In this document: positions 5,392 to 27,628 of the stretch, piece by piece | How the letters are laid out: the number at the start of each line of letters is the position of its first letter | How positions within the stretch are numbered: position 1 is the first letter of the stretch | Sequence record: MT682709.1 | Reading direction: 5' to 3' (one strand) | Source of the DNA: Escherichia phage vB_EcoM_SP1 | DNA length: 64,000 nucleotides | The notes under the pieces: model-generated | Told to the model about the DNA's origin: nothing | Databases searched by the model: none | Seen by the model: the letters and a program-made list of their open reading frames with translations, nothing else | Translations under genes and position numbers: made by a program

Positions 5392-6000
5392 ATGAGAATG
5401 CAAAATGATTTCAATTCAATGTTTGAAGAGTTCCAAAGACAGGTTGATGTTCCAGACCAATTACTGAATGCTCTTAAACGTATGGCAGAAGGACGTAATT
5501 ACTATTGGGGGTCTTCATATGAAACTGATGAAAGTCTTTCTGGAAGATTTTATAGAGGTAAAAAGTCTTTAATACGCCCTGGAATACTCATTAAAAGTAT
5601 TGAATCAATTCATTCATTGACATGTGATTTTGATGTTGAATTTACTGATTTCATTTCTCCTGAATGGACAGTTTGTTATTTAAATGACGATTATGATTAT
5701 CTTGGCATTTATAGTTTAAGTGACGCGGGGTTTAGACGTAATTTACAAAAGTCAAATTTATTTTATATTGATACTACGGTAAAATTTCAGGGAAAGAAAT
5801 ATTTCTTTACTCTTATAGTTGACTCTGAAACAAAATATGAAAATAAGCGTATTCTTAGTAAAAAGAATATCTTGACTATTATTGATGATCTTTTTGATAA
5901 ATTCGTGGAAAATCCCAGTTTTGAAAGCGATTTATTACTAGAAAAATTTGTTAAGGAATGTAGAGAATATGTCAAAGCCATCACTATACCTTCCAAGTAA
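5392..6000 (+). CDS. hypothetical protein (202 aa), C-terminal motif KFVKECREY
   Basis: ATG 5392; shares its C-terminal motif with the next three genes. Confidence 0.6.
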   Translation: MRMQNDFNSMFEEFQRQVDVPDQLLNALKRMAEGRNYYWGSSYETDESLSGRFYRGKKSLIRPGILIKSIESIHSLTCDFDVEFTDFISPEWTVCYLNDDYDYLGIYSLSDAGFRRNLQKSNLFYIDTTVKFQGKKYFFTLIVDSETKYENKRILSKKNILTIIDDLFDKFVENPSFESDLLLEKFVKECREYVKAITIPSK

Positions 6001-6361
6001 ACCTTTGAAGTATGAACTAAAGCGCCAGATAATTTCTACCGATGTATTAATGGGTCCTGTGGTAGCTGTATCATTTGTGATTCTGCTGATTGCTGGAATG
6101 GTTATAGACGTTATGACTGATATTGAATCCGGTGTAATATTTGGAGCAACGTTAATTCTTCCATTAATAATTCCGCTTTTATTAGTACCTGTAAATTGGG
6201 TAGGATACTGGTATCAAGGAAGACATTATCGTAAACGTGTACGTGAATGGAAAGCTCAGTGTAAAAAGATTAAAAAGGAACACCAGCTTAAACTAGATAT
6301 GTATGAATTTAACGAAATTATGAAATTTGTTAAGGAATCACGATGCAAAAGCCAAAACTAA
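5969..6361 (+). CDS. membrane protein (130 aa), C-terminal motif KFVKESRCK
   Basis: ATG 5969 in track frame (track begins at TTG 5948); two predicted TM segments. Confidence 0.55.
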   Translation: MSKPSLYLPSKPLKYELKRQIISTDVLMGPVVAVSFVILLIAGMVIDVMTDIESGVIFGATLILPLIIPLLLVPVNWVGYWYQGRHYRKRVREWKAQCKKIKKEHQLKLDMYEFNEIMKFVKESRCKSQN

Positions 6362-18646: not shown

Positions 18647-19108
18647 ATGATTATTAATGAAAGCTCTTGGCATTATAAATTATTCAAAATGTTTAACGAC
18701 GAATGGAAACGACCTAAGACACTGTGTGCATACTTTTGGTCTATTGTTATTCCTACATTTTTCGTTTCTTTTTTCGGATGTACTATACTCGCAGGTCTAA
18801 CTATCATCTGTGCAGAAATCATGCAGAAATGGCTTATTTTTGGTAGTTTATGGACTCTTATTCCATCAGCATTTATACTTGCCATTTTGCTTGTTTTACT
18901 TATTATTGGTTCATTTGTTATTCCTGCACAACTGCGTGAAAAATATAAAGATTATAAATGGAAAAAGGATTATGCTTTACATGTAGAAAATATTGATAGG
19001 GCGTATAAAGGTTTACCTCCTATTCAACCAAAGAAATCTATTATCGTCGAATTTTTAAAAGCGCGTAAAGCTAAAGTATGTCCTGTTATTGAATATAAGG
19101 CTAAATGA
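18647..19108 (+). CDS. membrane protein (153 aa; about three TM segments)
   Basis: Hydrophobic stretches; stop overlaps the next start (ATGATGA). Confidence 0.55.
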   Translation: MIINESSWHYKLFKMFNDEWKRPKTLCAYFWSIVIPTFFVSFFGCTILAGLTIICAEIMQKWLIFGSLWTLIPSAFILAILLVLLIIGSFVIPAQLREKYKDYKWKKDYALHVENIDRAYKGLPPIQPKKSIIVEFLKARKAKVCPVIEYKAK

Positions 19109-20118
19109 TGAAAACAATAATGAAAAGCTATTTTGGTAGTCATCTTTATGGAACTTCTACTCCAGAATCTGATGTAGATTTTAAAGAAATCTTTGTTCCT
19201 CCTGCTCGTGATATTCTTATCGGAAATGTTAAAGAGCATATGAGTAAAAACACTAACAACACATCATCTAAAAACACCAAAGATGATATTGACCATGAAC
19301 TATACAGTCTTAAATATTTCTTTAAATTAGCAGCAGATGGTGAAACTGTAGCATTGGATATGCTCCACACTCCACCTGAACTGGTAGTTAAATCTGATTT
19401 GCCTGATGTATGGAAGTTTATTCAAGACAATCGTTCACGGTTTTATACAACTAACATGAAATCCTATTTAGGATATGTTCGCAAGCAAGCTTCTAAATAT
19501 GGTGTTAAGGGTTCTCGTTTGGCCGCATTGCGTGATGTATTGAAAGCAGTTAATCAAATCCCTGATCAGTGGGTTGATTACCAAGAAGACGGTTCCATTA
19601 AGCAGCGTCGAACTAAAGTAGAAGATATTAAGCATCGTCTTCCAGAAAACGAGTTCTGTGAATGGGTATTCCATAATCATGAGAAAACAGGCCCGCAAAC
19701 GTTCTATACTGTGTTGGGTCGTAAATATCAGACAACACTTTCTCTTATTGAGCTTAAGCAGTCTTTGAATAAACTTGATGCTGAATACGGCGAACGTGCT
19801 CGTAAGGCTGAAGCGAATGAGGGTATTGACTGGAAAGCACTGAGCCATGCTTGTCGTGGTGGACTCCAACTATTGGAAATTTACAAAACTGGTGACTTGG
19901 TTTATCCACTCCAAGATGCTCCATTTATTCTCGATGTGAAGTTGGGTAAACATCCATTTAAAACGATCCAAGAGTTTTTGGAAGATGTGGTCGATCAAGT
20001 AGAAGCAGCATCCATTGAAGCTTCTAAGAACGGTATGCAGCAAAAAGTAGACATGGGTTTCTGGGATGACTTCCTTGAGAGGGTTTATCTTGAAAACCAC
20101 CGAAGTTATTATAAATAA
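19105..20118 (+). CDS. predicted nucleotidyltransferase (Pol-beta superfamily fold), 337 aa
   Basis: N-terminal motif GSHLYGTSTPESDVDF (GS-x9-SDxD) with a further acidic residue in DIDHE; helical C-terminal domain. Confidence 0.5.
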   Translation: MMKTIMKSYFGSHLYGTSTPESDVDFKEIFVPPARDILIGNVKEHMSKNTNNTSSKNTKDDIDHELYSLKYFFKLAADGETVALDMLHTPPELVVKSDLPDVWKFIQDNRSRFYTTNMKSYLGYVRKQASKYGVKGSRLAALRDVLKAVNQIPDQWVDYQEDGSIKQRRTKVEDIKHRLPENEFCEWVFHNHEKTGPQTFYTVLGRKYQTTLSLIELKQSLNKLDAEYGERARKAEANEGIDWKALSHACRGGLQLLEIYKTGDLVYPLQDAPFILDVKLGKHPFKTIQEFLEDVVDQVEAASIEASKNGMQQKVDMGFWDDFLERVYLENHRSYYK

Positions 20119-20121
20119 AAA

Positions 20122-20145
20122 GGGAGCCTTCGGGCTCCCTTTTTA
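20122..20145 (+). terminator. rho-independent terminator (UUCG hairpin)
   Basis: GGGAGCC-TTCG-GGCTCCC followed by TTTTT. Confidence 0.7.
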
Positions 20146-20149
20146 TTTC

Positions 20150-20235
20150 AAAATTTTTTCACAAAACGGTTTACAAGCATAAAGCTTTATGGTACTATAC
20201 AACTATCAACTGATACGGATTTGGAGAATAAAATG
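20150..20235 (+). repeat. early promoter-leader cassette, copy C
   Basis: AAATTTTTTCACAAAACGGTTTACA...GGTACTATACAACTATCAACTGATACGGATTTGGAGAATAAAATG; GTTTAC 20169-20174, TACTAT 20193-20198. Confidence 0.6.
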
Positions 20236-21201
20236 AAAACTGTAACTATCAATAAGGGTATCTACTTCGGTAAAGAAATCTCTGGAACTTTTGAGCTCTT
20301 AGGCGAATGGTTCCCAGATAATGCTCCGGTAGATGCACAAGGAGATGGTAAAGTTTTTGTTGAAATTGACGGTAAACGTCGCGGTGTTTGGGTTTACAAA
20401 TCAGATATTTCATATGATGGTGTAAAAGTTGAAGAAGTTAAAGAATCATATGAAGATATGAAAATCCGCATTAATAAAAGATTTAATGTTATGGGAATGA
20501 TGACGAATGGTATTATTAATGGAAATATTCGTTCATTAATTATCTCTGGCGCAGCAGGTATTGGTAAAACGTATTCTTTAGATAAAGCTTTGAATAAAGC
20601 AAATGATATTGGATACATTGAATATAAAAGCATTAATGGTAAAATCTCTGGTATTGGTCTTTATGAGCAGCTTTGGAATAATCGTGAAGAGAATTCTGTC
20701 CTTTTGATTGATGATGTGGATGTTTTCTCTGATATGGACATTCTTAATCTTCTAAAAGCTGCTCTGGACACTGGAGAGACCCGTAAAGTCTGCTGGAGCA
20801 CTGCATCTTCTTACTTAGAAGAAAAAGGCATTGACCGTGAGTTTGAATTTAAAGGAACGATTGTTTTTATCACAAACGTTGACATTGACCGCGAATTAGA
20901 CCGTGGTACTAAACTTGCCCCACACTTACAAGCATTGGTGTCCCGCTCAGTTTATTTGGATTTGGGTGTTCACACTAATGAAGAAATTATGGTCAGGGTT
21001 GAAGATGTTATTCTTTCAACTGACATGATGCAAAAGCGCGGTCTTTCTGATGAAGAAACTTATAAAGCATTATCATGGATGAAAGTTAATGTTAATCGTT
21101 TACGCAATGTTTCACTGCGTACTGCTCTTTATCTTGCTGACTTTATTATGACCGACAAAAACGGTTGGGAAGAAATTGCTGAGGTTACTCTTCTGAAATA
21201 A
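20233..21201 (+). CDS. AAA+ family ATPase (Walker A GAAGIGKT, Walker B LLIDDVD), 322 aa
   Basis: ATG 20233 after GGAGAATAAA (track begins at TTG 20221); Walker motifs. Confidence 0.6.
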   Translation: MKTVTINKGIYFGKEISGTFELLGEWFPDNAPVDAQGDGKVFVEIDGKRRGVWVYKSDISYDGVKVEEVKESYEDMKIRINKRFNVMGMMTNGIINGNIRSLIISGAAGIGKTYSLDKALNKANDIGYIEYKSINGKISGIGLYEQLWNNREENSVLLIDDVDVFSDMDILNLLKAALDTGETRKVCWSTASSYLEEKGIDREFEFKGTIVFITNVDIDRELDRGTKLAPHLQALVSRSVYLDLGVHTNEEIMVRVEDVILSTDMMQKRGLSDEETYKALSWMKVNVNRLRNVSLRTALYLADFIMTDKNGWEEIAEVTLLK

Positions 21202-21607: not shown

Positions 21608-21637
21608 GTTTACAAGACTGTTCCTCTGTGGTACTAT
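21608..21637 (+). promoter_or_regulatory. T4-type early promoter (cassette copy D)
   Basis: GTTTAC 21608-21613, TACTAT 21632-21637, leader ACAACTATCAACTACGGAGGAACAGAAAATG. Confidence 0.55.
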
Positions 21638-21665: not shown

Positions 21666-22193
21666 ATGAACGCTAAAGATATTTTCAACCTGGTAAATTA
21701 CAACGATGGTAAATTTAAATCTGAAGCACAAAGTAAGTTCTTTAACGACATCTCAATCGGAGGTGAAATCACTGTTGATGGAGGACAAATTTACAAATCC
21801 CGTTGGAATTGGATCGTTATTATCGATGAGATTGGTATTGTAGAAATTTACAAGAATACGAATAAAAATCGTACATTACACTGGTCTCGTGATACTAACG
21901 AACAGTACAAAAAGGATAAAGCATCTAAAATGTCTCGTGTAACTCAAGAAGATATTGAGTTCATCAAGAAAGATATTTTAATGTATGATAACTTAATTGC
22001 TGAAGAGCAAGCTGTTATTGATAAATTTGATGAGATTAAAGCTTCTCGTGAAATTCCTGATTTTATGAAAGAATCAGTAAATGAACGATACTCTCTCATT
22101 TCAGAGCGTATTGAAACTTACAAAAAGCAAAGAGCTGAACGCCAAAATACTCTTCGGAAGTTTGAAGAACGGTTAAAGACGGTACTCGCATAA
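21666..22193 (+). CDS. hypothetical protein (175 aa)
   Basis: ATG with GGAGGAACAGAAA RBS. Confidence 0.6.
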   Translation: MNAKDIFNLVNYNDGKFKSEAQSKFFNDISIGGEITVDGGQIYKSRWNWIVIIDEIGIVEIYKNTNKNRTLHWSRDTNEQYKKDKASKMSRVTQEDIEFIKKDILMYDNLIAEEQAVIDKFDEIKASREIPDFMKESVNERYSLISERIETYKKQRAERQNTLRKFEERLKTVLA

Positions 22194-22248
22194 CCGCTTT
22201 ATACCAAGGATGGTATAATGGTTCTAAGCCCTTTTAATTGAGATTATT

Positions 22249-22656
22249 ATGAAACAGTTGATAATTAAAAGATTGAATTTATTGATATGTTGTTTATGTG
22301 TAGTAGTTGCATATGGTTATTACGCAATTAATGATTATATGCACTATAAAGATTATGATGTTACTGTAGTTAATACTATTACAGGAACACAAGGAAAGGG
22401 GTCTAGTTTATCGTTTATTGCCGTATATGAACTCAAAGACGGTTATAGATTTAGTGAATATATTTCCCCAGAGATGTATTCTTCAATAGAAAAAGGTGAT
22501 AATATTACTGTAAGTTTACGTCCTTTCGACGTAAAACAGACACTGTTTGATAATATTGTTTGGTTCTTTGGGATGGTATTAGTTCAATCCGTGTGTGGTG
22601 CTTATATAGTCTGTTCAATCATATTCTGTGTATTTAGTAAAATTGAAATTGAGTGA
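22249..22656 (+). CDS. membrane protein (135 aa)
   Basis: N- and C-terminal hydrophobic segments; possible middle promoter (CGCTTTA box, TATAAT 22214-22219) upstream. Confidence 0.5.
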   Translation: MKQLIIKRLNLLICCLCVVVAYGYYAINDYMHYKDYDVTVVNTITGTQGKGSSLSFIAVYELKDGYRFSEYISPEMYSSIEKGDNITVSLRPFDVKQTLFDNIVWFFGMVLVQSVCGAYIVCSIIFCVFSKIEIE

Positions 22657-22663
22657 GGAAAAT

Positions 22664-23551
22664 ATGTCAGTAGTAATTAATAATGTCAATACAGTAATTA
22701 AATCTTTAGTTAATAAAAAATTGAATGAATGGACTGTACTTCGTCGTGGAGAGCCAGATAAATTTTTTCATAGATTTAACCTAACTCTGAATTTGAATGT
22801 TATTGACAAAGATGTTCATGCTGAAATTTTAGATAAATTTAAAGTTGATATTGGATTTGGATTAGAAAAACATCTACAGCGAACACACGAGTCTGGAATG
22901 GATTTATCTAATCGCATTATGAAAGCCCTTAATAAAATTGGAGCGCTGTCTCGTATTAATGCGAGTGAAATCCTTCGTAATTATAATAAAGGATATGACC
23001 TTTATGGTCGACTAATGCCGAAATTATCGTTTGACCAAATGATTGCGGATTTGTGGGAAAATCAACGACGATTATTAGCATTGGGCGCTCGATTAGCTAA
23101 AGGTCTAGATAAACAAATGATTTTTAAGACCAATAATACAGAAGACCTTAAATGCTTTAAATTTAGTATGCGTGGAGATGATTATTACATCAGAGCTCAC
23201 TCTACAGATTATGTTAATATGGGGCATCATCTCTGTTTAGCTTTTGAAGTTTTAAAAGAAGCTGGAACATTAGAATATTCATCTGGTGCAAAATGCCCGA
23301 TTGGTTCAAATTGTATTTTGATTTATCGCCCGGATGAATCCAGTTCAACTAAATTGCCTACAAAACCTGTACCAGTTCGTAGTAACGAAAAACATTCTGA
23401 ACAAATTGATTATTTTAATAAGCAAATTGAAGAGCTGAATATTTCTATTCAACAATACGACGATGAAATTTTCAGACTATCTGGATTGAGTAGTAAAGCT
23501 AAATCTGAGCGTGAAAAATTAATTAAAATTGTTGATTTACTTAAATCTTAA
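22664..23551 (+). CDS. hypothetical protein with C-terminal coiled coil (295 aa), tandem family member 1
   Basis: ATG 22664 after GAGTGAGGAAAAT; C-terminal heptad region ...IEELNISIQQYDDEIFRL...KLIKIVDLLKS. Confidence 0.6.
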   Translation: MSVVINNVNTVIKSLVNKKLNEWTVLRRGEPDKFFHRFNLTLNLNVIDKDVHAEILDKFKVDIGFGLEKHLQRTHESGMDLSNRIMKALNKIGALSRINASEILRNYNKGYDLYGRLMPKLSFDQMIADLWENQRRLLALGARLAKGLDKQMIFKTNNTEDLKCFKFSMRGDDYYIRAHSTDYVNMGHHLCLAFEVLKEAGTLEYSSGAKCPIGSNCILIYRPDESSSTKLPTKPVPVRSNEKHSEQIDYFNKQIEELNISIQQYDDEIFRLSGLSSKAKSEREKLIKIVDLLKS

Positions 23552-23559
23552 GGAACACC

Positions 23560-24588
23560 ATGAAAACTCGTTCTCAAATTGAAGATATGGTTCGTAATGC
23601 CAGCTATACCCGTGATGTTATGACATTTTTGTGTGAAAATAATTTAGACCCTGATAAAGTTAATCGTGTTATTCATCACTTTAAGTATACGAATAGCAGT
23701 GAATGGGTGCGTAATTTTAGCGAAGCAGGGTATATTACGCAAATGACGGCTCGTGAGCAGCTCACCGATTTCTGTAAAACTATTGATTATAAAAATCCTC
23801 TATTTGTTCAAGGCGTTGGTCAAAGTAAGGTCGATTTATCATCTGGATTTTTTAATCCAAATCATTATCGTATTGAATGGAGATTTATTGCTCTGTTCCG
23901 TAGACAATTAAAGCAAATTTTATCAACTGCGAGTCGATTAAAAGGTTCTGATATTAACTTAAAGAATCTGAAATTTGATGGTTATACTCTTCAGATGGAA
24001 GTAAGACCATTAAAAGAAAATAATAGAACTGCACGAATTAGCTTTAAACCTAATACAAAAAATTCTCTTTCAATTTGCGAATGCCTTAAATCACAGTTAA
24101 CAGAAGCATTTAAGTATATGGATGTTGTTGCTGCTGTTCAATCTAAGATTTTACCTCGTTTTGAACGATTTAAGTTAGATACAACATCATATGAACTTGA
24201 TATGATCGTTTCATTTAAATACGATTTTTTGAGAAAGGACGAAGTCCCGCAAGAGAAAAAGCAGGAAGCGCAAGATAACTTAAATTTAAATTTATCCAAT
24301 TACTCATCAAACGATCCTAAATTTTGGATGTATAGCTCAAGCAATATAGATGCATGTAAACTTAATAAAGTGAGTTTTCTTCCTACTGAAAATTCAAATT
24401 TTAAACCTGTAGAAAAATGGCACGCTGACGCGATTGAGAAGTCTCTTAAGGCAGTAGATGATGAACTCGTTAAAGCGACCAATGAAGTGCTAGAAGCTGA
24501 AAAGGCGTTAGAACAAGCTCAGTCAAGGGTTCAAAATCTGACAAAGCAACGTTCTAAACTGAACAATGCACTAAATGCACTGAACTAG
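23560..24588 (+). CDS. hypothetical protein with C-terminal coiled coil (342 aa), family member 2
   Basis: C-terminus ...EAEKALEQAQSRVQNLTKQRSKLNNALNALN. Confidence 0.6.
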   Translation: MKTRSQIEDMVRNASYTRDVMTFLCENNLDPDKVNRVIHHFKYTNSSEWVRNFSEAGYITQMTAREQLTDFCKTIDYKNPLFVQGVGQSKVDLSSGFFNPNHYRIEWRFIALFRRQLKQILSTASRLKGSDINLKNLKFDGYTLQMEVRPLKENNRTARISFKPNTKNSLSICECLKSQLTEAFKYMDVVAAVQSKILPRFERFKLDTTSYELDMIVSFKYDFLRKDEVPQEKKQEAQDNLNLNLSNYSSNDPKFWMYSSSNIDACKLNKVSFLPTENSNFKPVEKWHADAIEKSLKAVDDELVKATNEVLEAEKALEQAQSRVQNLTKQRSKLNNALNALN

Positions 24589-24617
24589 TTTACTTCACCA
24601 CAAGGATGTGGTATAAT
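24588..24617 (+). promoter_or_regulatory. T4-type early promoter
   Basis: GTTTAC 24588-24593, TGGTATAAT 24609-24617. Confidence 0.55.
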
Positions 24618-24645
24618 GTTCTTACTTTCTACTGAGGAGATTATT

Positions 24646-25647
24646 ATGACTCGTAACGAATATATCAAATCATTCAATAGAGTTATTGATGATAAAGCTA
24701 TACCGATGTTTGGCCAAAATAGCGTTCTTTCTATTATCAATCAGTGGCTCAATAGTGTTGATGCAAGTATTGTTTCTTCTGCTAAATTTATTCATGAAAT
24801 TCGTAAAATTTCTAGCCGTGTAGATAAAGATGTTATCAAGAAAACCTTTAAAGAGTCTCGTCTTCTTTCATATTTGGTTAATCGGGATATTCTTGGTAAT
24901 TTTGGGAAAGAAATTAAACGAACCAAAGATGTAGTAGGATATAATTGGTTCGGTGATGTTAATTCTTATCATCTTAATAATAAAGAAGACCCTGAGAATA
25001 TTTTTACTCGTCGTTGGATTAGTAATTTCAGACTTTTCAAAGGACAGATTCTAAAATCAGCTTCTAAATTATGTTATGGCGATTATCGTCAAATTCATCC
25101 TTTGGCTTCTGATATGATTATCATAAAAGAATATGAACTTGATAAAAATAAAGTATCTATTTTTGTGAATTATGGATTTTTTACACCAGAAGCTAACCAA
25201 AAGAACATTAATAAATTTTTCTCAATTGCTAGCACTATAACTCGTCAATTAGAGACCGCATTACTTTGTATGGAAACAGTAGAAAATATTCATACTTATC
25301 CTTTTAAGAATATATGCGGTTGGGAAGGATATAAAATTGTAATTAGTCTTCGTGAAGTAAAGTGCGCGTACTCACCTACTAATAAAGAAATTTATCAACA
25401 AAAATGTGAGGAAATTGTGAATACCCCTAAAGAAGAAACTACCCTTGAGGAACTAATGGATAATCTTGACGATTCGCCTGAACCGGTAGAAATTCGTCCA
25501 GAAGTTATTGCACTAGAAAAAGCTTATAAAGAAGTTCTAGAAATTTCTAATAAAGCACAGAAAGAATATGAGCAGGCTAAAAGGATTTGGGAAGAATCTG
25601 TTAATCGCCTAGATCGTCTTGAACAAGCTTTACAGTTAATTAAGTAA
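24646..25647 (+). CDS. hypothetical protein with C-terminal coiled coil (333 aa), family member 3
   Basis: ATG 24646 after GAGGAGATTATT; C-terminus ...KEYEQAKRIWEESVNRLDRLEQALQLIK. Confidence 0.6.
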   Translation: MTRNEYIKSFNRVIDDKAIPMFGQNSVLSIINQWLNSVDASIVSSAKFIHEIRKISSRVDKDVIKKTFKESRLLSYLVNRDILGNFGKEIKRTKDVVGYNWFGDVNSYHLNNKEDPENIFTRRWISNFRLFKGQILKSASKLCYGDYRQIHPLASDMIIIKEYELDKNKVSIFVNYGFFTPEANQKNINKFFSIASTITRQLETALLCMETVENIHTYPFKNICGWEGYKIVISLREVKCAYSPTNKEIYQQKCEEIVNTPKEETTLEELMDNLDDSPEPVEIRPEVIALEKAYKEVLEISNKAQKEYEQAKRIWEESVNRLDRLEQALQLIK

Positions 25648-25699
25648 TTTAAAGCCAAGGATGGCTCGGAGTATAAATCATTAACCAAGTGAGAAGAAC

Positions 25700-26629
25700 A
25701 TGAAAACTCGTAAACATTATATTGATTATTTTGATAGTCTTATTACTAAACACCGTAATTATCATATCGGGCACAGAGCAGTAATCAATAATATTCTTCG
25801 TGATTTCCTTCAATATGTTGGCCAGGAAAATCATATCTGTAAAGATACTCAAAACGCTTATTCTCATTCGTTAGGCAATTTGCTTGAATGGTTTAAACGT
25901 TCTCGTATGTTATCTTCTACTATAGCTCATGAGAACATTAAAAACTTTATGAAGCCGAGCTTCATTAAATCTGAGACATCTATAACCGATTTGGTTGAAT
26001 TTACTATTGTTAACGATGTTAAAAAGACCCATTTGGCTGATTGGTTATCTACCATTCCCGAAACTAAATTTGCTGATAAATTTGCTTGTCAATTCAATGA
26101 CCAAGTGAATATGCTTTTTAAGCATGCTCGCAAACTGTTTACCGCTGGCGATGACCGTACAAATACAGTTCATGTTAAGGATTGGGTTATTGCTGATGAA
26201 GTAACACACAAGCCAGGTGGTTCATCAGTATTAATTAATATCCAGGTTCCTTATTATTACTCACGTAATCTCGGCACCATGACAGCTAAAGAAATTAATA
26301 AGCACAACAAAACTATTCGTTCGTTGTCTTATAAACTTCGCATGATGTTAAAAATTATGGACGTAGTAGAAATGTATGATGAAACCGAAGATAATGGTTC
26401 AATGTTATACAGTTCACGCATTCTAATTAAACTGAAGAACCCTAATACGTATAAGCCAGTTGTAAAAGAACCTAAAGTAGAAAAGGTTGATAACTTGAGC
26501 GAAGAACGCGAATATCTCAAATCTCGACTGGTTGAAGTTGAAGCCCAAATTGCAGAACACACCAAATTGTTAAAAGCTCTTAATGCAAAAGCAAATGGTT
26601 TACGTAATGCTATTGAGGTACTGAAATGA
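25700..26629 (+). CDS. hypothetical protein with C-terminal coiled coil (309 aa), family member 4
   Basis: C-terminus ...[42 protein letters not shown]. Confidence 0.6.
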   Translation: MKTRKHYIDYFDSLITKHRNYHIGHRAVINNILRDFLQYVGQENHICKDTQNAYSHSLGNLLEWFKRSRMLSSTIAHENIKNFMKPSFIKSETSITDLVEFTIVNDVKKTHLADWLSTIPETKFADKFACQFNDQVNMLFKHARKLFTAGDDRTNTVHVKDWVIADEVTHKPGGSSVLINIQVPYYYSRNLGTMTAKEINKHNKTIRSLSYKLRMMLKIMDVVEMYDETEDNGSMLYSSRILIKLKNPNTYKPVVKEPKVEKVDNLSEEREYLKSRLVEVEAQIAEHTKLLKALNAKANGLRNAIEVLK

Positions 26630-26922
26630 AAAAGCGTTTATTAGAAGATATTGCCGAAGCTTCAGATTTTCCTGAATGGACTCCATGCGTTGGGTTTGAT
26701 AAAGGACTGCTAGTTACTGACGATTTAGATTTTAAACCTCCAGCATGGGATGCCATTATGGCTATGGTTGAACGTCGTGAAAGGGCTTCTAAAAACGTTC
26801 CTAATTGCCCTGAATGTGGAACTGAACAGGTGCAATTGGTCCATTGGCAGACTAGTAATCTTCGTTATAAATGTCGCCATTGCAAACACCGATTTGACCG
26901 AGAAGAAAATGACCAAGCGTAA
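26626..26922 (+). CDS. zinc-ribbon protein (98 aa)
   Basis: CPECG...CRHCKHRF four-Cys motif; ATG overlaps previous stop. Confidence 0.5.
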
Positions 26923-27151
26923 AGAATATATGGAGGCTGCTGAAAAGGCAGTCCGTGAATTAGCAATAGCTTATTATAATGAACATGGTAAATTTCCTGA
27001 TAGATACAGCGTACTTAAATCTGCTTTAACTCGTTCATATAAAAATATGCTATCAGAAGTAAGTGATATTATATACAAACATAAAGAACAAACGGGCCAA
27101 AGTCTTGATTACGACGAGACTTTTAAACAAGTACTAGGAATTAAGGAATAA
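26909..27151 (+). CDS. hypothetical protein (about 80 aa)
   Basis: In-frame ATG 26909 (alternative 26930) within a longer track ORF. Confidence 0.4.
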
Positions 27152-27152
27152 T

Positions 27153-27416
27153 ATGTTTAAAGTATATGGTTATGATAGCAACATTCATAAATGTGTGTAT
27201 TGCGATAATGCAAAACGTCTTTTGACCGTGAAGAAACAGCCGTTTGAATTTATCAACATTATGCCGGAAAAAGGTGTTTTTGATGATGAGAAAATCGCTG
27301 AGCTTCTGACTAAACTAGGTCGTGATACTCAAATCGGCTTGACAATGCCCCAGGTATTTGCTCCTGATGGAAGTCATATTGGTGGATTTGACCAACTGCG
27401 AGAATACTTTAAATGA
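27153..27416 (+). CDS. nrdC: thioredoxin/glutaredoxin NrdC
   Basis: 87 aa; MFKVYGYDSNIHKCVYCDNAKRLL... with CVYC active site; matches recalled T4 NrdC. Confidence 0.9.
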   Translation: MFKVYGYDSNIHKCVYCDNAKRLLTVKKQPFEFINIMPEKGVFDDEKIAELLTKLGRDTQIGLTMPQVFAPDGSHIGGFDQLREYFK

Positions 27417-27628
27417 TGCTCGAAGGAACTGATTATATCCATGACTACCGCGGAAGCGCGGTATATGTAGGTGATGAAGTTGCAGTTTATTATGGGTATG
27501 GAACTTTGATGACAGCCAAGGTTATTCAAATTAAAAATAATCGTGCTAAACTCGAAGTTTATTATTCTAATGGTGAAAAGTCTATTTCTAAGTGGAAATA
27601 CGGCGATTGTATGGTTAAATTGGGGTAA
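27413..27628 (+). CDS. hypothetical protein (71 aa)
   Basis: ATG overlapping nrdC stop. Confidence 0.5.
   Translation: MMLEGTDYIHDYRGSAVYVGDEVAVYYGYGTLMTAKVIQIKNNRAKLEVYYSNGEKSISKWKYGDCMVKLG

Follow-up and report, generated by a model that had tools for sequence, protein, structure and literature searches.

The window analysed here, a stretch of 64,000 nucleotides from Escherichia phage vB_EcoM_SP1 (sequence record MT682709.1), carries an array of four consecutive genes that encode proteins of similar size, all of them on the plus strand (Table 1). The best public megablast matches over positions 22000–27500 were 95–97% identical and identified the locus as that of a Tequatrovirus, the window being a T4-like genome read along the direction of early transcription. 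Synteny with T4, as annotated in its record, assigned the genes as nrdC.6, nrdC.5, nrdC.4 and nrdC.3, in that order, flanked by nrdC.7, which encodes a membrane protein, on one side and by nrdC.2, nrdC.1 and nrdC downstream. An earlier note, made from the sequence alone, had placed these genes among the T4 nrdC.x genes, with which the megablast matches and the T4 annotation agree. It had also proposed a diversifying family of tandem paralogues with divergent globular regions, similar N-termini and a shared heptad-rich C-terminal segment, read there as a module for oligomerisation or targeting. The layout of the four open reading frames (ORFs) is as it described, and the likeness of the N-termini holds in part: nrdC.5, nrdC.4 and nrdC.3 start with M(K)TR, whereas nrdC.6 starts with MSVVINN.

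Table 1. Positions of the four coding sequences (CDS) of the nrdC.6–nrdC.3 array and of their features in the window.
Feature	Position	Strand	Basis or remark
nrdC.6-like CDS, 295 amino acids, most divergent family member	22664..23551	+	ORF
nrdC.5-like CDS, 342 amino acids, orthologue of the T4 anti-Dsr1 factor as judged by sequence and synteny	23560..24588	+	ORF, DUF7235
nrdC.4-like CDS, 333 amino acids, start at MTR	24646..25647	+	ORF, phrog_1435
nrdC.3-like CDS, 309 amino acids, close nrdC.4 paralogue, non-T4 allele	25700..26629	+	phrog_1435, hhalign
Core motif 1 in nrdC.6, FDQMIADLWENQRRLLALGARLAKGLD	23030..23110	+	Aligned to the Kanagawavirus 337-residue protein, NYNWRMILTLGSRLCVGRSR
Core motif 1 in nrdC.5, EWRFIALFRRQLKQILSTASRLKGSD	23875..23952	+	hhalign alignment to nrdC.4
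Core motif 1 in nrdC.4, TRRWISNFRLFKGQILKSASKLCYGD	25006..25083	+	Within model helices 119–130 and 132–140
Core motif 1 in nrdC.3, FADKFACQFNDQVNMLFKHARKLFTAGDD	26069..26155	+	Profile alignment with nrdC.4
nrdC.6 C-terminal helical module, residues 245–294, helix-break-helix	23396..23545	+	Model DSSP, heptad register
nrdC.5 C-terminal heptad helix, residues 284–342	24409..24585	+	Heptad register, conservation, alignment to the nrdC.4 and nrdC.3 C-terminal ends
nrdC.4 C-terminal heptad helix, residues 285–333	25498..25644	+	Model helix 285–332, conservation
nrdC.3 C-terminal heptad helix, residues 262–309	26483..26626	+	Heptad register, conservation
Early-promoter-like site before nrdC.4, GTTTACT, 17 nucleotides, TGgTATAAT	24588..24617	+	Consensus scan 10/12, extended -10

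All four proteins end in a heptad-patterned helix of 45–60 residues. When the 94 plus-strand ORFs of at least 80 amino acids in the window were ranked by a simple heptad score over their last 28 residues, nrdC.5, whose C-terminal end is the peptide EAEKALEQAQSRVQNLTKQRSKLNNALNALN, came first, followed by nrdC.6 (rank 3), nrdC.3 (rank 4) and nrdC.4 (rank 8). The a/d register was unbroken over 59 residues in nrdC.5 and over 48 in both nrdC.4 and nrdC.3, and ran in two segments in nrdC.6. Leucine, isoleucine, valine or methionine occupied 50–79% of the a/d positions over six to eight heptads, with the highest value in nrdC.3. Stretches of at least four unbroken heptads with hydrophobic a/d positions were thus found, along with predicted helices at the C-terminus of the AlphaFold2 models of nrdC.4 and nrdC.6, and the segments singled out in the earlier note are real. 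In every one of the four proteins a Pro-Val pair lies 54–61 residues before the C-terminus, and in the family proteins the chain ends at, or one residue past, the pattern [LIVA][LIV][KN].

Regional conservation was computed from orthologues that share less than 70% identity, and the tail was the best-conserved region in nrdC.5 (35% identity vs 15–21% elsewhere) and in nrdC.4 (59% vs 39–47%), where the segment WEES.NRLD.LEQAL.L.K is nearly invariant among orthologues down to 43% identity. In distant nrdC.6 orthologues the tail was 63% identical, compared with 33–43% in the globular part, and in nrdC.3 it came second to the N-terminal region (69% vs 47–74% elsewhere). Since the tail is the best or second-best conserved region, it was considered a constrained functional element and not filler. 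A heptad-patterned helix also ends the product of nrdC.8 (21666–22193, 175 amino acids; rank 5 of 94). This gene was excluded as a member of the family, as profile comparison gave no homology to the four.

In pairwise BLASTP of the four proteins and five neighbours, only the relationship between nrdC.4 and nrdC.3 was convincing (27% over 160 amino acids); pairwise BLAST and searches with hidden Markov models (HMMs) against sequences gave nothing significant for nrdC.6 against the others and weak signals for nrdC.5. These results, and the three separate families kept by Pfam and PHROGs, would fit an array with no family beyond nrdC.4 and nrdC.3, in which nrdC.5 and nrdC.6 are unrelated, the tails were acquired independently and the similarity is compositional. 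We regard this as very improbable on account of the deeper comparisons. For these, T4 and 14 related loci supplied one alignment per family, and the resulting profiles were compared by hhalign in local mode; the families of five neighbouring genes served as controls. The nrdC.4 and nrdC.3 profiles matched with a probability of 97.4 (P 1.5e-11 over 228 columns), and did so with the tails removed (P 2.7e-12). The match of nrdC.5 with nrdC.4 was collinear over 170 columns (P 5.6e-4); when the last 65 residues were split off, the globular parts still matched collinearly (P 9e-4), as did the tails alone (P 5e-4). The tails of nrdC.5 and nrdC.3 aligned in register to the C-terminus (P 9e-4). Negative controls gave P values of at least 0.06 in both the four-family and the split-tail comparisons. 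A search of 1.84 billion representatives with the nrdC.5 profile provided no bridge, as no more than 13 proteins were returned, which makes the nrdC.5 family a tiny one, and nrdC.4 was not among them.

Bridging homologues were found in other genera of the Tevenvirinae, which hold a single heptad-tailed protein of 320–346 amino acids at the same place, just 5' of nrdC.2. The Winklervirus protein matched nrdC.5 (probability 95, P 2e-8 over 151 columns) and nrdC.4 (P 2e-4 over 206 columns), and the Kanagawavirus protein matched nrdC.6 (P 2e-4), nrdC.5 (P 4e-4) and nrdC.4 (P 6e-3). The nrdC.6 profile was further matched over 170–200 columns by the Karamvirus (P 1e-3) and Tegunavirus (P 3e-3) proteins, and that of nrdC.4 by the Jiaodavirus protein (P 8e-4). 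Unrelated controls gave P values of at least 0.015 in this comparison. The matches were located in the core and were not limited to the tail, and control proteins that end in a helix or neighbour the array did not match, all of which argues against similarity by composition. The proteins of about 257 amino acids encoded 5' of the single-copy homologue in Karamvirus, Jiaodavirus, Kanagawavirus and Winklervirus were also considered and were unrelated by profile comparison.

The AlphaFold2 models of nrdC.4 and nrdC.6 had mean predicted local distance difference test scores of 83.6 and 77.9, respectively. Both show the same order of elements at nearly equal residue numbers, namely three helices, two strands, a long helix, two strands, a low-confidence linker and the tail, which is a single helix in nrdC.4 (residues 285–332) and two in nrdC.6 (residues 245–271 and 277–294). 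With the nrdC.4 model as query, Foldseek retrieved predicted structures of nrdC.6 from phage JS10 (E 3e-5) and phage Sf25 (E 4e-4), and both models found the same uncharacterised proteins of approximately 300–370 amino acids from Karamvirus and from Pectobacterium, Acinetobacter and Erwinia phages. This structural agreement likewise speaks against unrelated proteins with independently acquired tails. Two core motifs recur. Motif 1 includes QILSTASRLKGSD in nrdC.5, QILKSASKLCYGD in nrdC.4, NMLFKHARKLFTAGDD in nrdC.3 and RLLALGARLAKGLD in nrdC.6, and the segment of the Kanagawavirus protein that aligns with nrdC.6 at this motif also aligns with nrdC.4. Motif 2 lies on the long core helix; nrdC.5, nrdC.4 and the Winklervirus protein have QL..A...M[DE].V, with the variants KL......MD.V in nrdC.3 and HL..A in nrdC.6. 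Motifs 1 and 2, the Pro-Val pair and the terminal heptad helix were found in the same order, and the common architecture comprises an N-terminal helical region, an alpha/beta core, a disordered linker that begins near the Pro-Val pair, and a heptad helix of 45–60 residues.

Similarity of the globular regions was thus found between every family, either directly or through intermediates, and with controls, the link of nrdC.6 being the weakest. We conclude that all four genes are very divergent paralogues of one superfamily restricted to the Straboviridae, to which nrdC.6 is the least directly linked. The family idea of the earlier note was therefore essentially right, including a common C-terminal helical module, and support for it comes from profile–profile comparison, bridging homologues and structures, with negative controls for each of the three. 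The relationship goes beyond composition; it was visible by BLAST for nrdC.4 and nrdC.3, and more sensitive methods were needed to show the rest.

Databases hold the four proteins apart. The nrdC.5-like protein matched Pfam DUF7235 (PF23882) with 394.9 bits (gathering score 30 bits; E 3.7e-118) over residues 1–342 and profile positions 1–307, and this profile had no match in the nrdC.6, nrdC.4 and nrdC.3 proteins. Among PHROGs, nrdC.6 matched phrog_2257 (E 2e-150), nrdC.5 matched phrog_2351 (E 9e-167), and phrog_1435 was matched by both nrdC.4 (E 3e-168) and nrdC.3 (E 5e-115); all are full-length HMM matches, and all three families are annotated 'unknown function'. Precomputed annotations assign PF26897 to all nrdC.4 homologues, down to 39% identity, and to the nrdC.3 part of a natural nrdC.5/nrdC.3 chimera (P0119), and they assign PF26899 to all nrdC.6 homologues. 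Judging by these homologues, nrdC.4 and nrdC.3 very likely belong to PF26897 and nrdC.6 to PF26899. Sequence searches of the four proteins against Pfam, NCBIfam and the Protein Data Bank gave nothing informative beyond DUF7235, and the last of these revealed no solved structure for any relative. Weak matches below the cut-offs, to PHL, an integrase SAM-like domain, SEC10/PgrA and designed helical repeats, were treated as compositional.

Copy number varies among genera. Tequatroviruses carry nrdC.6-5-4-3 and Mosigviruses nrdC.6-5-3, whereas Tegunavirus has two copies that lie scattered, and a single copy is found in Karamvirus, Jiaodavirus, Kanagawavirus, Winklervirus and Lazarusvirus. Nine divergent loci (L007–L015) have nrdC.6, a 71-residue membrane ORF, a short nrdC.5 and nrdC.4. 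This ORF, a conserved predicted membrane protein at about 5840–6070 of these loci, overlaps the start of the short nrdC.5-like gene and is without a Tequatrovirus counterpart at that place. In the phage collection, tblastn found nrdC.6 in 741 records, nrdC.5 in 531, nrdC.4 in 553 and nrdC.3 in 653.

The ratio of nonsynonymous to synonymous substitution rates (dN/dS) was computed against five Tequatrovirus loci, with the exclusion of the nrdC.4 value of L006, in which that gene is frameshifted. Gene-wide values were 0.11–0.32 for the four genes, which is two to three times those of the flanking nrdC.11, nrdC.10, nrdC.8, nrdC.1, nrdC and gp49 (0–0.13, leaving aside isolated pairs with a dS of about 0.02, for which the ratio was higher). 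As the ratios exceed those of the neighbours yet are below 1, the four genes evolve faster while still under purifying selection. Two deep alleles of nrdC.3 exist (61% amino-acid identity, dS about 1), whose divergence is concentrated in residues 116–240. The gene of the window is 88% identical at the protein level to that of Mosigvirus HX01 and 61% to T4 nrdC.3, which suggests exchange between genera; the notion that nrdC.3 is specific to Tequatrovirus was dropped in view of this Mosigvirus gene. Deeply divergent alleles also occur in nrdC.2 (26626–26922; 62–82% amino-acid identity, dS about 1), and for both genes they are found among Tequatroviruses that are otherwise approximately 95–99% identical.

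Individual members are disrupted or rearranged in several records. The nrdC.6 of Shigella phage Sf25 (P0121) has an internal tandem duplication of 83 residues, and in the chimera P0119 nrdC.5 is fused to nrdC.3 with deletion of nrdC.4. In vB_EcoM_G8 (L006, 6971–8003) nrdC.4 is split into two ORFs, and in T2 a fragment of 155 amino acids is annotated. The T4 reference NC_000866 (L001, 10067–10894, minus strand) has a one-nucleotide deletion in nrdC.6, reading GAGCTG-ATATT in place of GAGCTGAATATT, which is present in the window (around 23435) and in L003; the product is 275 amino acids long and lacks the C-terminal helix. Since the HIDEN-SEQ annotation of T4 gives nrdC.6 as an 891-nucleotide gene, the reference may represent a strain variant or a sequencing error. 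Finally, an 803-bp ENA metagenome contig (L016) encodes a protein of 173 amino acids (P0230), in which an unrelated N-terminal part of 117 residues, with no tblastn match in the phage collection, precedes a near-identical nrdC.5 tail; the start of nrdC.4 follows, and only bases 480–803 match Tequatrovirus. It may result from a domain swap onto this tail or from chimeric assembly, and the latter was borne in mind because this is a single short contig whose halves match different phage groups. As for the diversification put forward in the earlier note, the copy number of one to four, the deep alleles and the frameshifts, fusions and duplications are in keeping with it, whereas the dN/dS values indicate no positive selection at the gene level.

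This variation also bears on whether the four proteins are subunits of a single hetero-oligomeric complex that assembles through the coiled-coil tails and has one function. The genes are adjacent and co-oriented, the proteins are similar in size and all have heptad tails, as such a complex would have it. However, other genera hold one, two or three members in differing combinations (6-5-3 in Mosigvirus, 6-5-4 in L007–L015), natural isolates have single members frameshifted or deleted, and nrdC.5 on a plasmid by itself restores the plating of a T4 deletion mutant on Dsr1+ cells (PMC9391042), the accessible text of that study leaving unstated which neighbouring genes the mutant retains. A hetero-complex was accordingly judged decidedly improbable.

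The T4 deletion mutant in question fails to plate on cells with Dsr1, a SIR2-domain (sirtuin) defence, and T4 NrdC.5, the DUF7235 protein, overcomes it (Srikant, Guegler & Laub 2022, PMC9391042). A 2026 preprint (PMC12803255) describes the sensor of Dsr1 as a TPR domain common to Avs7 and its trigger as the major capsid protein. The nrdC.5 of the window has 95% amino-acid identity to that of T4 (dN/dS 0.16) and lies at the same position between nrdC.6 and nrdC.4. By sequence and synteny it is the orthologue of the T4 anti-Dsr1 factor and would be expected to counter Dsr1 in this phage as well. As distant paralogues of nrdC.5, the remaining three genes are good candidates for immune-evasion factors; among the four, only nrdC.5 has a demonstrated phenotype. 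Other inhibitors are encoded nearby: gp49.2, from the same stretch of T-even genomes, inhibits OLD (PMC13096335), and nrdC.1 inhibits Septu (10.1101/2025.11.20.689424). In the accessible portions of the HIDEN-SEQ report, T4 nrdC.3 to nrdC.6 were scored as non-essential on K-12.

We therefore favour, as reasonably probable, the reading that the array is an expanded early counter-defence family whose shared coiled-coil tail probably oligomerises, and in which nrdC.3, nrdC.4 and nrdC.6 may have counter-defence roles of their own. The four would be early, dispensable accessory genes in a genome stretch that encodes inhibitors of host immunity. Each paralogue would be made early, its divergent globular domain may bind directly to a different host immune sensor or effector, and its conserved tail would form a coiled coil, by which the inhibitor might oligomerise and become multivalent. 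The target of nrdC.5 would be the SIR2-TPR protein Dsr1, which the early inhibitor might occupy or lock before the late trigger, the major capsid protein, accumulates. Tails that have diverged between paralogues would prevent cross-pairing.

Several points weigh against this counter-defence reading. The genes nrdC.3, nrdC.4 and nrdC.6 have no known function; in the accessible portions of the HIDEN-SEQ report, the passages on nrdC genes name nrdC.1 only, and the T4 comparison table has no effect for nrdC.3 to nrdC.6. No paper was found on how nrdC.5 acts on Dsr1, whether by direct binding or by another route. On the side of the family itself, direct profile–profile comparison of nrdC.6 with the other three gave no signal (P at least 0.18), so that its link rests on the bridging proteins and the predicted structures. 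In addition, the hhalign P values derive from shallow alignments and coiled coils are prone to spurious similarity, so the controls were relied on.

Another possibility concerns the part of the protein that meets the target. Helices and C-terminal peptides are frequent ligands of TPR domains, and the C-terminal helix could be the warhead that inserts into or packs on the target, for instance a TPR superhelix of the Dsr1 type, with the globular domain as scaffold. The sensor of Dsr1 does consist of TPR repeats (PMC12803255); moreover, the tail is the best or nearly best conserved region of each family yet differs between families, as a target-specific interface would, and it always finishes with the [LIVA][LIV][KN] pattern, located at the C-terminus or no more than one residue from it. 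Nevertheless, a regular hydrophobic a/d stripe over six to eight heptads is seen more typically in coiled coils that self-associate, and family-specific tails would also be expected after duplication simply to avoid cross-pairing of paralogues. On balance, such a warhead seems rather unlikely.

The alpha/beta core weakly resembles the tail-terminator fold, which could point to a role in virion assembly, as in tail-terminator or tail-completion proteins (lambda gpU-like, DUF3168, SPP1 gp17-like). Scores with these families were below threshold and indicated no sequence relationship; furthermore, the nrdC proteins differ from tail terminators in their extra N-terminal helical region and coiled-coil tail. 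Tail terminators are late and essential, whereas T4 nrdC.3 to nrdC.6 are dispensable for plaque formation and lie in an early-type context between nrdC.10 and nrdC, with an early-promoter-like site. A virion-assembly role is thus scarcely tenable. The same resemblance enters a more speculative proposal, which we deem unlikely, namely that the proteins are radiating decoys. The core would mimic a conserved shape of virion proteins and act as an early plug for TPR-type sensors (Dsr1, Avs7-like and other Avs families, which recognise folds of capsid, terminator and further structural proteins), ahead of the real late triggers, and the tail would multimerise to match oligomeric sensors. If this were true, each paralogue would disarm a sensor family of its own, which would make nrdC.3, nrdC.4 and nrdC.6 three new inhibitors of the anti-Avs/Dsr type.

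Among known systems, the phage protein DSAD1 is a functional analogue of the favoured counter-defence family in that it is reported to suppress DSR2, a SIR2-domain NADase that senses a late structural protein. It differs in belonging to the SPbeta phage group and in its target, as DSR2 senses the tail tube and Dsr1 the major capsid protein. It was set beside the array by function alone, and homology is not expected. Like the array, the T4/T6 proteins gp49.2 and NrdC.1 are encoded by dispensable early genes that cluster in a variable part of the genome, here the same neighbourhood, and the dmd-tifA-adfA 'anti-TA island' follows the same logic. The proteins of these three cases are small, unrelated and outside the family of coiled-coil-tailed proteins of approximately 300 amino acids.

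T4 is the best-studied phage, yet most of its nrdC.x genes are without a function. Ancestry and architecture shared with nrdC.5 turn three 'hypothetical proteins' into specific counter-defence candidates, each of the four genes being carried by about 500–740 sequenced phages. The parts worth mutating are also defined, namely the globular surface, which diverges, and the tail, which is conserved, and the differences in copy number between genera constitute natural experiments on the expansion of anti-immune repertoires. No paper relating nrdC.5 to nrdC.6, nrdC.4 or nrdC.3 was found in the literature. What is new is the union of three Pfam/PHROG families in one superfamily, the map of architecture and conservation, and the counter-defence prediction for nrdC.3, nrdC.4 and nrdC.6. 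The system itself is not of a new kind, as the genes were already catalogued and one of them, nrdC.5, has a published phenotype.

The start of nrdC.4 was placed at MTRNEY (333 amino acids) and not at an alternative ATG at 24616, which would give 343 amino acids, because the early-promoter-like site is followed by the Shine–Dalgarno sequence GAGGAG, seven bases 5' of the ATG at 24646, and because distant orthologues likewise start at the MTRNEY position. The putative promoter fits GTTTAC/TATAAT, which we take to be the T4 early-promoter form. A DNA repeat search of the array gave no duplication at the nucleotide level except for the common start of nrdC.5 and nrdC.3, ATGAAAACTCGT; the translation-start regions of these two genes (23553–23571 and 25693–25711) have 17 of 19 nucleotides in common, GAAnAnCATGAAAACTCGT. 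An Rfam search of the array region found no family, and the ORFs on its opposite strand included no convincing gene.

Outside the array, a strong terminator-like hairpin with a 16-bp stem, a GC-rich core and a T run lies directly after nrdC.11 (20113–20148), and early-promoter-like TTTACA-17-TACTAT sites precede nrdC.10 (20170–20198) and nrdC.8 (21609–21637). The nrdC.10 gene (19105–21201 together with nrdC.11), annotated in some records as AAA or clamp-loader-like, was found in 1311 phage records, including jumbo phages and T4-like phages of Vibrio and Aeromonas, and is thus far more broadly distributed than the four-gene family.

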